DNA of 64,000 nucleotides from Stylophora pistillata (lineage: Eukaryota), in the NCBI RefSeq assembly GCF_002571385.2, contig NW_019217919.1, positions 292,265-356,264 on the forward strand. The letters are read 5' to 3'. This document shows positions 49,555 through 52,371 of the stretch, one piece after another (positions within the stretch are counted from its first letter, which is position 1; each line of letters opens with the position of its first letter). A program made the translations under genes and the position numbers. Under the pieces are notes generated by a model, which was given only the letters and a program-made list of their open reading frames with translations, was not told the DNA's origin and searched no databases.

Positions 49555-52371
49555 ATGTTTTTGCCCCGTTTCTGGGTTTTTGTTTCAATAATTCTAATTG
49601 TCACCTGTTGTTCACGCATCGATGGTTTTTGGTTCTTCTCTTGTCCCCATGGCAACGGTTTTGGACAGGCTGGTGATGTTTGCTCGGCTTTCTGTCGTTG
49701 CGAACCCTCAAACACGTGCGAGGCGGGAATACAGAAATGCGCGCCACCTGGAAGGTACAGAGACCGCTGTCATGCTACGAGACCGTGTGCGACTGGGCTC
49801 AGTTGTCATCCGGGAGTTCAGAAATGCTTCCACGTGCCTCGTCGTCATGGTGAGCCGTGTGTAGCGGGTTATGCATGTGGCAGCGGTCTCTCTTGTGAGC
49901 CTGGAGTTCAGGTTAGTTAAACGGTACGCCAAAGTAAAAATATTGGCTGCTTCGGTTTTTTCAATTCAGATGATTCTAATTTATGAGATGGAAAATACTT
50001 TTTTAGGCATGTTATTACCGCCCTCGCCAATACAACGAACCCTGTTCTGCGGGATATTCCTGTGCTCCAGGACTCAGCTGCCAACCAGGTTATCAGAGAT
50101 GCTTGCATCATCCGAGGCTAGAAAATGAGAGGTGTTCGGTGGGATACGCATGCGCTGATGGTTTGGTCTGTAGACTGTGTGACAAGCCATATGCCACTTG
50201 TCAGCTTTCGCGCGTACCTGCTTTAACAGAGCAGGTATTGGGCATTCATATATAAAGTGCTGAACTTACATGATTTGTATAACAATCATATGTTTGAATA
50301 TGTTATATGCATGGTTTGGTAATGAGCTTTAACGCAGCTGGTCGCTGAGATTTTGTATTGTAAGGGGCAATGGTATAGATAAGGCCAAGGAAAATTTTAC
50401 ATAGGTCCAAAATAGTTACTCACTAATGGTACTTGTTGCCTAGGACTATGGCAGACCCTTTAACAAAGTGGCATTCCTTGTTACCCATAATTCCTTCTCG
50501 CATTCTCCAAATTTTGCTGTATGGGCCCGGAATCAACGTTTTAGTGTCAGTCAGCAGTTAAAGGATGGTGTGCGCGGTCTCATGTTAGATATATATCCAG
50601 GTAAGATCACCTAGCACCTTGTTTTATTTTGCGTCTTTGACGTTTTCTTTGTTATATTCATAATAAAGAGAATGATGAAGCAGCTAAGACAGACACAGGT
50701 AACTATCCCGTAAAATCTAAGCTGTTCTTCTTCATTACACTCCTTTCTAGGATGGGCTGCAGCGGAGGTTCGTCTTTGCCATTCGTCTTGTTTCTGGAGC
50801 GGATCAATAGACTTGTTAAGCACGTTGATTGAAATCAGAAAATTCCTGGAGAGTAATATCCGAGAAGTTATCACAATAATTTTTGAGGATTACTTAAAAA
50901 ATCCCACAATCTTGAAAACAGTGTTCGATCAAGCAGGAATTTCTCCTTATGTGCTACTGAAAGACAACTGGGGTGATGGGTTCACCGATTGGCCCACTCT
51001 AAATGCCATGCGCAGATTAGGTAGACTGGTGGTGTTTAACAATAACGGCCTTCACGGATTCCCATATACTGAGGTCAACATGTGGAGTTATGTTAGAGAG
51101 AATCGTTATGGAAGTCCAGGTAGAAACGAGAGGGTATGTGCTCGATCGAGAGAAAGATTTATTAAATTGAATATTCATTTTCCTTGTACTAGGGCAAAAT
51201 CCAACCTCGTTCCCAGGACCTTTTACCCCCAACTAAGAGAAAAGGCCATTGGAGTGAGGTTGAGCAAACTCTGTATACGAGTCAAGTGGCCCACCTGCCG
51301 GAGCTTATCCCGATTTCAATAGCATGAAGCGACTAGGATTATTACTACCCCCCCCCCTTGAATGGGATGTTAATTCGTTATAAGATGATCTCCCGGCATT
51401 TCATCAAGTTTCCCGAAAAAATATGCAGGTACCCATTGATACTCCTGGATAGAGAGAGGTACTGTGTAACCTCTCGACCCGGAGTCTAACGCAGTAACCA
51501 TCAGCTCACCTTGTCTCCCACCCCCGCTATCGGAAACAAAAACTCCTTTTCAAATGTAGATTTATTATAGAGAGCGGACCCCTAGATTCTACTCGACATC
51601 TCTTGACTGTTGGAAGGTTTGCAAATTTAGTCCCTTTTTCTGGTACTCTCCGTCACCTTCGACTTACCCGTTGTAGCAACCATGTCTTTGTAAGCTGTGC
51701 ACAATAAATGAAAATATTTTCTATATCAACGTGCCATACATTTTCTTCCAGAAAATTGTGTTTCGGCCGAATTTTCTCAGATCTAAATCTCTCTTTTTCA
51801 AAAACTGCGTTATTCACTGACCTCTTTTTCCTCTTGAAAGGAATGTGTAGATCGCGGAGAGTCTCGGTGGAATGCTTTCTGGAATGACCGCTGGAGCCTG
51901 GTGTTGGTAAATTGGTTTAATACCCTGGCCAATCCTCTTGAGCCATGTCTTAATTCTTTCCAGGAGATAAGAAAGAAATTAAACACTTGCCATGACAAAT
52001 TTGGTTATTGGGCAAATTTTATAGCGGTCAATTATTATACTGCAGGTTCAGGAGGCGGAGCTTTTCAAGCTGTCAAATGGCTGAATAATAAGTTCAGGGG
52101 TAAGTTAATGTTTGGGGTCAGTGTTGCTTGGGCATTGTGCCATTTATTATGCCGACATAAAAAGTATTGGAGGTTTAGACTTTTTTTTCAAGTTTTTGAG
52201 ACTCGCCCTCAACATCTGCCGGCGGATCTGGAGCTAAGTACTTTCTCATACCTCTCGGACGAGAGGTATTAGCTAGCGTAAGCGAAATCATTTTAGTTAA
52301 GGCACGCTTGTGGCTACGACAGATTTCCGAGACCCTCCTTTCTCCTTTGCCAGATCTAGCAGGGTGTGAAC

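Follow-up and report, generated by a model that had tools for sequence, protein, structure and literature searches.

The cysteine-rich repeat that precedes a phospholipase-like domain in the coral Stylophora pistillata is, as judged from its sequence, a member of a cross-kingdom family of 29–30-residue four-cysteine units and not coral-specific. This goes beyond the original prediction of an unrecognised tandem repeat fused to a PI-PLC domain, as the comparisons below point to a mobile family that is not peculiar to the coral gene and whose units are joined by a two-type junction rule. The coral gene lies in a 64,000-nucleotide stretch of DNA, hereafter the window, in whose coordinates all positions are given.

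The gene model comprises six exons on the plus strand (49555–49911, 50007–50234, 50444–50600, 50751–51133, 51841–52099, and 52761–53596) that encode a 739-aa open frame. All introns are of the GT..AG type, and a GT..AG joint was recovered for each of the five in at least one of eight RNA runs. A first set of four runs supported introns 1, 2, 3, and 5, intron 4 being absent there, and the four other runs supported introns 1–4, intron 5 being absent. The predicted fusion of the repeats to the PI-PLC domain was borne out by a single 802-nt RNA contig from run X8, which corresponds to 49583–50838 across introns 1–3 and joins the repeats to both catalytic histidine codons. The nearest relatives of the gene are stony coral proteins, and searches of the coral's own genome, which returned few candidates, gave no second copy of the repeat or the enzyme. 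The following features were assigned:

49555–49626, plus strand: start codon and predicted signal peptide (aa 1–24), the sole stretch of the protein with a 19-residue hydropathy above 1.4
49627–49740, plus strand: N-cap and unit 1 (C30; C43-x3-C47-x-C49-x5-C55-x6-C62), from sequence
49768–49827, plus strand: unit 2 (C72–C91), H-x-T-R-P type, 21/29 residues identical to a unit of the Myxococcales protein P0033
49858–50012, plus strand: unit 3 (C102–C121), A-G-Y type, interrupted by intron 1 (49912–50006), best non-cnidarian match 21/29
50043–50102, plus strand: unit 4 (C132–C151), A-G-Y type, best non-cnidarian match 22/29
50133–50201, plus strand: unit 5 (C162–C184) with the extra C177, from sequence
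50444–52099, plus strand: At5g67130-type PI-PLC catalytic domain, exons 3–5 (50444–50600, 50751–51133, 51841–52099)
50486, 50780, and 51946, plus strand: domain residues H210, H258, and C411, respectively
52761–53596, plus strand: exon 6, encoding 276 aa of basic, low-complexity tail; its junction with exon 5 is present in RNA run X1

The signal peptide is presumably cleaved after aa 24, and the F-W-F-F-S-C that directly follows the signal-like stretch is common to the orthologues. The tail encoded by exon 6 is poorly conserved, with 43% identity to Oculina and 0–18% to five other orthologues, and a Pfam search with it gave no match. At 53227, the RNA of three runs carries an in-frame 6-base insertion relative to the window, a length polymorphism of the tail exon. 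Run X3 showed an alternative acceptor near 52046 for intron 4 (51134–52045), use of which would remove most of exon 5. A CT..AC joint at 50846–51821 in run X1 is what a minus-strand GT..AG intron would give, and stranded X21 reads over 49300–50054 and 50508–50960 run mostly opposite in direction to the exon 6 reads; from these few reads and one contig, a spliced antisense RNA over the PLC gene is possible. Very high contig depth and loose ends in four runs mark intronic positions 51320–51357 as a dispersed repeat. Farther downstream, two identical 140-aa fragments, which we take to be reverse-transcriptase-like, lie 2,008 bases apart on either side of an N stretch (57672–58094 and 59680–60102) and are either a tandem copy or an assembly duplication.

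The original prediction had placed about five units with the spacing C-x5-C-x5-C-x6-C in exons 1 and 2. All five strings were found, in an array that extends from C30 at 49642 to C184 at 50201, and the spacing is exact in four units, which start at aa 43, 72, 102, and 132; the fifth (aa 162) is modified to C-x5-C-x5-C-x2-C-x6-C. Among 20,000 shuffles of aa 21–200, two units arose in 14, and three or more never did. Linkers of the form PRxxxE[P/R], said to join most of the units, were seen in three of four cases, the first linker being of a second type. Cysteines beyond those noted earlier are C47 in unit 1, together with C30 upstream of it, and C177 in unit 5. The five units share 9–17 of 29 residues pairwise, and the array is mildly basic in charge (17 K+R versus 11 D+E over 166 aa). 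With six anthozoan orthologues the repeat region is 67–86% identical, at least as much as the catalytic domain in 6/6 comparisons. Cnidarian orthologues have the N-cap with its extra cysteine pair as well, and so do further proteins, some of them fused to astacin (P0030, P0076, P0101, P0116, P0123), which look eukaryotic by their sequences.

On every feature testable here, at the level of sequence and structural model, the coral enzyme is an At5g67130-like family member. Precomputed annotation places PF26146 (PI-PLC_X) and PF26178 (PI-PLC_cat) on three orthologue clusters and on ESM Atlas clusters, and in the local Pfam, which is without these two entries, PF00388 scored 13–18 bits on five orthologues, under its cut-off of 23.1. 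In the ESM Atlas, residues 155–462 are nearest to plant clusters (0.94). The model of the Orbicella orthologue (pLDDT 77.8; 83% identical in the catalytic domain) matches PI-PLC structures with a best E of 1.7e-7 and a TM(target) of up to 0.65, in keeping with a PI-PLC-type TIM barrel. H210 and H258 align with invariant histidines in 7/7 non-animal homologues. A two-histidine active site is known from the castor member of the At5g67130 family, and hydrolysis of PI and PC, in yeast microsomes, is documented for both At5g67130 and its castor homologue (PMC6221933). We predict that the coral protein is a secreted PI-PLC-like enzyme.

Cysteines may tie this enzyme to its array. The mature region up to aa 463 contains 28 of them; C177 and C411 occur together in 12/12 full-length anthozoan rows, and C411 is missing from 7/7 non-animal PLC rows without the array. 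Such co-presence suggests the bonds C257–C261, C377–C425, and C177–C411, the last of which would staple unit 5 to the barrel. None of 35 non-animal homologues, a set of bacterial and fungal types with no plants, carries the repeat array. Plant At5g67130 members may have one five-cysteine N-terminal module that resembles unit 5, in which case unit 5 would perhaps be old, with units 1–4 as later additions.

A profile built from five anthozoan arrays was searched against databases that include bacteria, as had been proposed with the original prediction, and matched the family far beyond corals. At E ≤ 1e-3, a set of 6,841 candidates yielded 113 proteins, and a search of 1.84 billion proteins yielded 244 representatives (46 at 1e-30), the best 150 of the 244 being listed. 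Units 2–4 of the window share 21–22 of 29 residues with non-cnidarian units, as compared to 17–22 of 29 with the Nematostella orthologue. The majority of carriers are metagenome proteins; named ones are MAG proteins of Myxococcales, Rubrivivax, Methylococcaceae, and Nitrospinales and, among eukaryotes, proteins of Chlorella, Parachlorella, Micractinium, and Colponema. A pattern scan of 185,579 prokaryote genomes yielded at least seven loci, and, because all seven bacterial loci are in MAGs, mis-binning is possible. The neighbouring genes of L004 and L005 look bacterial in translations read by eye. Around three carriers, the family occurs in 1/151 genomes of the genus, 1/201 of the family, and, as a strong match, 1/401 of the phylum; Myxococcota gave a further six matches that are weak (E 1e-9 to 1e-10). 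So patchy a distribution is suggestive of lateral spread, with incomplete genomes and mis-binning as caveats. A tree of 107 two-unit blocks over 52 columns, with hand-made group labels that put P0090 wrongly among the named bacteria, has no resolved branching; its bootstrap was not settled, and the animal rows fell on one side in 32% of bootstrap trees. We therefore claim no donor, and transfer and ancient inheritance with loss are both possible.

Several further sequences deserve mention beside this distribution. L031:2351–2921, P0138, and P0217 are apparent animal orthologues, two of which are without intron 1; P0217 has two units only, and intron 2's position is where each of the three breaks off or diverges. 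Other lineages, and steps in the growth of the array, may be represented by them. Very long arrays with scattered single-unit matches in several frames (L023, L024) suggest an intron-rich eukaryotic gene, and a tandem pair of repeat-bearing genes in L006, L010, L013, and L020 suggests local duplication in bacterial carriers. A scan of IMG/VR for viral carriers gave 43 pattern matches and none confirmed. Eleven giant-virus and iridovirus matches in BFVD at E ≤ 1e-3 were rejected as relatives at TM 0.19–0.28 and rmsd 7.6–13, and their models are read as generic cysteine-rich strings. The ESM Atlas gave no usable match to the repeat.

From 197 non-cnidarian matches, obtained after removal of cnidarian-like sequences by inspection, 104 with at least two core motifs were kept for a survey of fusion partners and 93 weaker ones excluded. 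A hydrophobic N-terminus is present in 77/104 members. The array comes first with the partner behind it in 90, the partner is N-terminal in nine, and five consist of the repeat only. Adjacent partner segments form 30 clusters, a few of which are further repeats or frame artefacts. The commonest partner (31/104, including P0044, P0028, and P0031) is a glycine-rich segment of ~150 aa with a YGxxGEFGC motif, for which Pfam and the PDB gave no match. The second commonest (21/104, including P0036, P0051, and P0052; also at the loci L004 and L005) is a domain with an inserted Gly/Ala-rich hydrophobic stretch and likewise gave no family match. Astacins account for seven and M8-type proteases for five of the 104. 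Lipid hydrolases account for 12, five of them by motif alone (four PLA2-like, one PI-PLC-like). Six members have SMase D/PLD relatives as partners, including P0092, which matches sicariid PLD structures (E 2.8e-5); five of the six carry GHNPN, a motif that the supplement of PMC6299612 has for the basal clade. A sphingomyelinase C is the partner in one (P0071, E 4.7e-16). Follow-up searches for P0141 as a PI-PLC and for the P0075 group as PLA2 gave no confirmation, and both stay motif-level leads. Distal accessory domains are lectin-like or lipid-binding (F5/8C, PAN, tectonin, ricin, VMO-I, AbfB, DM9, PLAT). Judging by the partners, fusion of the module took place independently with at least three confirmed phospholipid-hydrolase families, the coral one counted, and with two protease families, so that the predicted module-plus-enzyme architecture holds in so far as it recurs with many unrelated enzymes. 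Confirmed hydrolase families are a minority of the repeat carriers.

Consecutive units of these arrays are joined by junctions of two types. We analysed 457 unique junctions, of which 362 could be typed and 95 could not. In 360 of the 362 typed junctions, the C3–C4 hairpin of a unit foretells how long the following linker is and which first loop the next unit has, x-A hairpins going with H-x-T-[RK]-P (166) and x-P hairpins with x-x-G-[YFH] (194), with two exceptions; the counts are drawn from related sequences, which inflates their significance. Within a single unit, the same features are weakly linked (odds ratio 0.37). The coral array obeys the rule with one alpha and three beta junctions. 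Such a rule would imply a conserved interface between units and a semi-rigid chain. An array model computed from five sequences (pLDDT 81.8) has ordered linkers, and in this model and that of Orbicella short strands pair at C3 and C4 of each unit (pLDDT 76–91 by blocks). Disulfide-directed hairpins, strung into a chain, make up the predicted fold. All four cysteines are kept in 613/614 unique units, which makes a co-loss test of their pairing uninformative. The colipase fold has been described as a head-to-tail pair of DDH motifs (10.1101/485722), from which a C1–C3/C2–C4 pairing would follow for the repeat by analogy. This pairing is in keeping with arrays whose first cysteine is, in general, C1 and whose last is C4.

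Pfam, NCBIfam, and PHROGs assign no family to the repeat, in agreement with the original view that it is not an established one. On the window exons, the best Pfam score was 16.3 bits against a cut-off of 28 (IGFBP); the repeat of five orthologues gave none at cut-off, and 69 relatives (E ≤ 0.01) gave one match on the repeat, DUF5885, at 16.1 versus 33.2. The best of 30 two-unit blocks reached E 1.6e-4 (IGFBP), below cut-off where bits were shown, that is, for the first block only. None of Dickkopf_N, IGFBP, EB, Draxin, Colipase_C, and Prokineticin reached its curated cut-off on the repeat. Newer precomputed Pfam annotation places Dickkopf_N on four distant matches, and UniRef names P0060 after Dickkopf_N. 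Sequence searches of the PDB with exon 1, P0001, A3, and A8 gave nothing below E 0.1 for the repeat, and Foldseek, a check also proposed at the outset, gave no match in the PDB at E ≤ 1e-3. A structural search ranked Dkk1 CRD2 first (Z 5.2, rmsd 4.0, 60 aligned), with a Z in the tool's common range, and colipase second (Z 3.8, rmsd 6.0, 62 aligned); lower matches were many knottins (Z 2–3.5), Bv8 (Z 2.5), IGFBP, and Draxin. A two-unit profile aligned with Draxin ungapped over 51 columns at E 0.024. The colipase- and prokineticin-likeness first proposed for the repeat is thus consistent, at fold level, with the matches to Dkk1 CRD2, colipase, and Draxin, but the ten-cysteine frame is missing. 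In the literature covered, to which subscription papers and bioRxiv supplements did not belong, we found no description of the repeat or of the orthologue accessions; the available parts of PMC5498517, PMC7042732, and PMC9909359 contain nothing on the repeat, and no evidence for a venom role of the coral protein was found.

We consider it somewhat probable that the array is an anchor by which the PI-PLC-like enzyme, predicted to be secreted, is held at the surface of a target cell, on a membrane lipid or surface glycan. By analogy to colipase, which anchors lipase, the anchored enzyme would cleave phospholipids at that surface, and prey, microbes, or host cells could provide the membranes or glycans on which it is concentrated. 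The array would form a semi-rigid stalk, each unit packing its hairpin against its successor, with C1–C3/C2–C4 pairing within units and additional bonds C30–C47 and C177–C411, and conserved His/Thr/Arg and Tyr/His/Arg junction residues could mediate multivalent binding. An anthozoan (or earlier animal) PLC gene would have captured the array from a pool moving between microbes. Counting against an anchor, lipid-hydrolase partners are few, the two commonest partners are without a family name, and the basic charge of the array is slight. Dickkopf, Draxin, and prokineticin bind protein receptors, not lipid, and we count this preference of the nearest folds against a lipid anchor as well. In the manner of Dickkopf CRD2, Draxin, or knottin toxins, the array could instead lead the enzyme to a specific protein, as the ligand of a protein receptor or as a module for protein interaction, in line with nearest folds that are all protein binders, colipase excepted, with the ungapped alignment to Draxin over 51 positions, and with strong surface conservation. 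Units so nearly identical between bacteria, algae, protists, and corals would, however, require a receptor common to all targets, and tandem multivalency is better suited to repeated small ligands, and we regard such a protein-directed role as unlikely.

An array that is N-terminal of its partner in 90/104 proteins occupies the usual position of a pro-domain, and an insect fungal-protease inhibitor is among the weak fold matches (Z 2.8). That the repeat is a pro-domain, folding aid, or inhibitor, with an enzyme latent until its removal, is nevertheless improbable, given partner folds as unrelated as TIM barrels, EEP, and zincins, a variable number of units, the existence of repeat-only proteins (5/104; Chlorella-type P0060), and the putative C177–C411 bond, which would hold unit 5 attached. 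There is a slim chance that the array is a protease-resistant spacer or stalk without a ligand. Packing alone can account for the junction rule and Gly, Pro, and Cys dominate the consensus, but a free N-terminal position leaves nothing to space, the polar His, Arg, Gln, and Tyr of the repeat are kept across kingdoms, and conservation of the array equals that of the enzyme. Slimmer still is the chance that its ligand is the matrix of the producing organism itself (mucus, exopolysaccharide, cell wall), or that it self-associates, thereby packaging or retaining secreted cargo. The carriers are secreted proteins from mucus- or slime-producing organisms and some have sorting tails (P0029: choice-of-anchor U, JDVT-CTERM), yet the matrices of the producers differ widely and the carriers are isolated genomes within their groups.

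A wider proposal can be made, which we put forward as doubtful but conceivable: a horizontally circulating homing module with interchangeable junctions of two types, directed at a single chemical feature that many cell surfaces share and serving unrelated microbes to aim their phospholipases and proteases, captured by an early animal or anthozoan gene and kept almost unchanged, and maybe a living microbial cousin of the colipase/Dickkopf building block. The family of extracellular repeats defined here is small, highly conserved, and missing from profile libraries, and it connects an uncharacterised single-copy coral and anemone enzyme with microbial secreted hydrolases. Identification of the ligand of an isolated array would annotate about a hundred orphan proteins together. 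Should this ligand be a shared surface feature, it would bear on coral prey digestion, on the handling of microbes and symbionts, and on the origin of the colipase/Dickkopf building block.

Among described systems, the general class for the repeat is that of the SCREPs, disulfide-rich tandem arrays that bacteria and eukaryotes secrete and of which 98.4% are InterPro-assigned, as far as the available text goes (PMC6262176); the available main text of that study contains no colipase or Dickkopf. DUF-A of Cordes and Binford 2018 may be related to the repeat, as it is a Cys-rich domain of ~80 residues on SMase D/PLD of marine phytoplankton with very weak similarity to the colipase fold in the accessible part of that paper (PMC6299612). 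Compared by this partial description, DUF-A is C-terminal on SMase D/PLD, whereas the repeat arrays are N-terminal on PLD relatives. With At5g67130-like proteins, the coral protein shares the two histidines and its orthologues the family annotation, and the five-unit array is on the coral side (0/35 bacterial and fungal homologues). DDH and ICK knottins share four cysteines and the C3–C4 hairpin with the repeat in the model. ICK knottins have a six-cysteine knot, whereas the repeat has four cysteines and no third disulfide, hence no knot, and the DDH and ICK knottins are free peptides, in contrast to a tandem array fused to enzymes.

The closest comparison is that with the colipase fold (Dickkopf CRD2, the C-terminal domain of Draxin, prokineticin/Bv8/MIT1, and colipase), which has head-to-tail DDH-type subdomains and provided the top structural matches. 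Draxin has a 5-5-6-10-5-5 core spacing like that of the repeat, and its C-x3-C-x-C-x5-C equals that of coral unit 1, which alone among the units carries the extra C-x-C cysteine. The colipase/prokineticin frame has ten cysteines, a CC doublet, and an inter-subdomain disulfide, parts of which show in the alignments with Draxin and Dkk2; the repeat differs by four cysteines per unit, without CC and without an inter-subdomain bond except for the putative C30–C47. The N-terminal AVIT motif of prokineticins is absent from the coral protein, which would start with F-W-F-F-S-C after cleavage of its signal peptide. Finally, the colipase fold consists of one pair of subdomains, whereas the arrays of the repeat are open-ended and extend to bacteria and algae.
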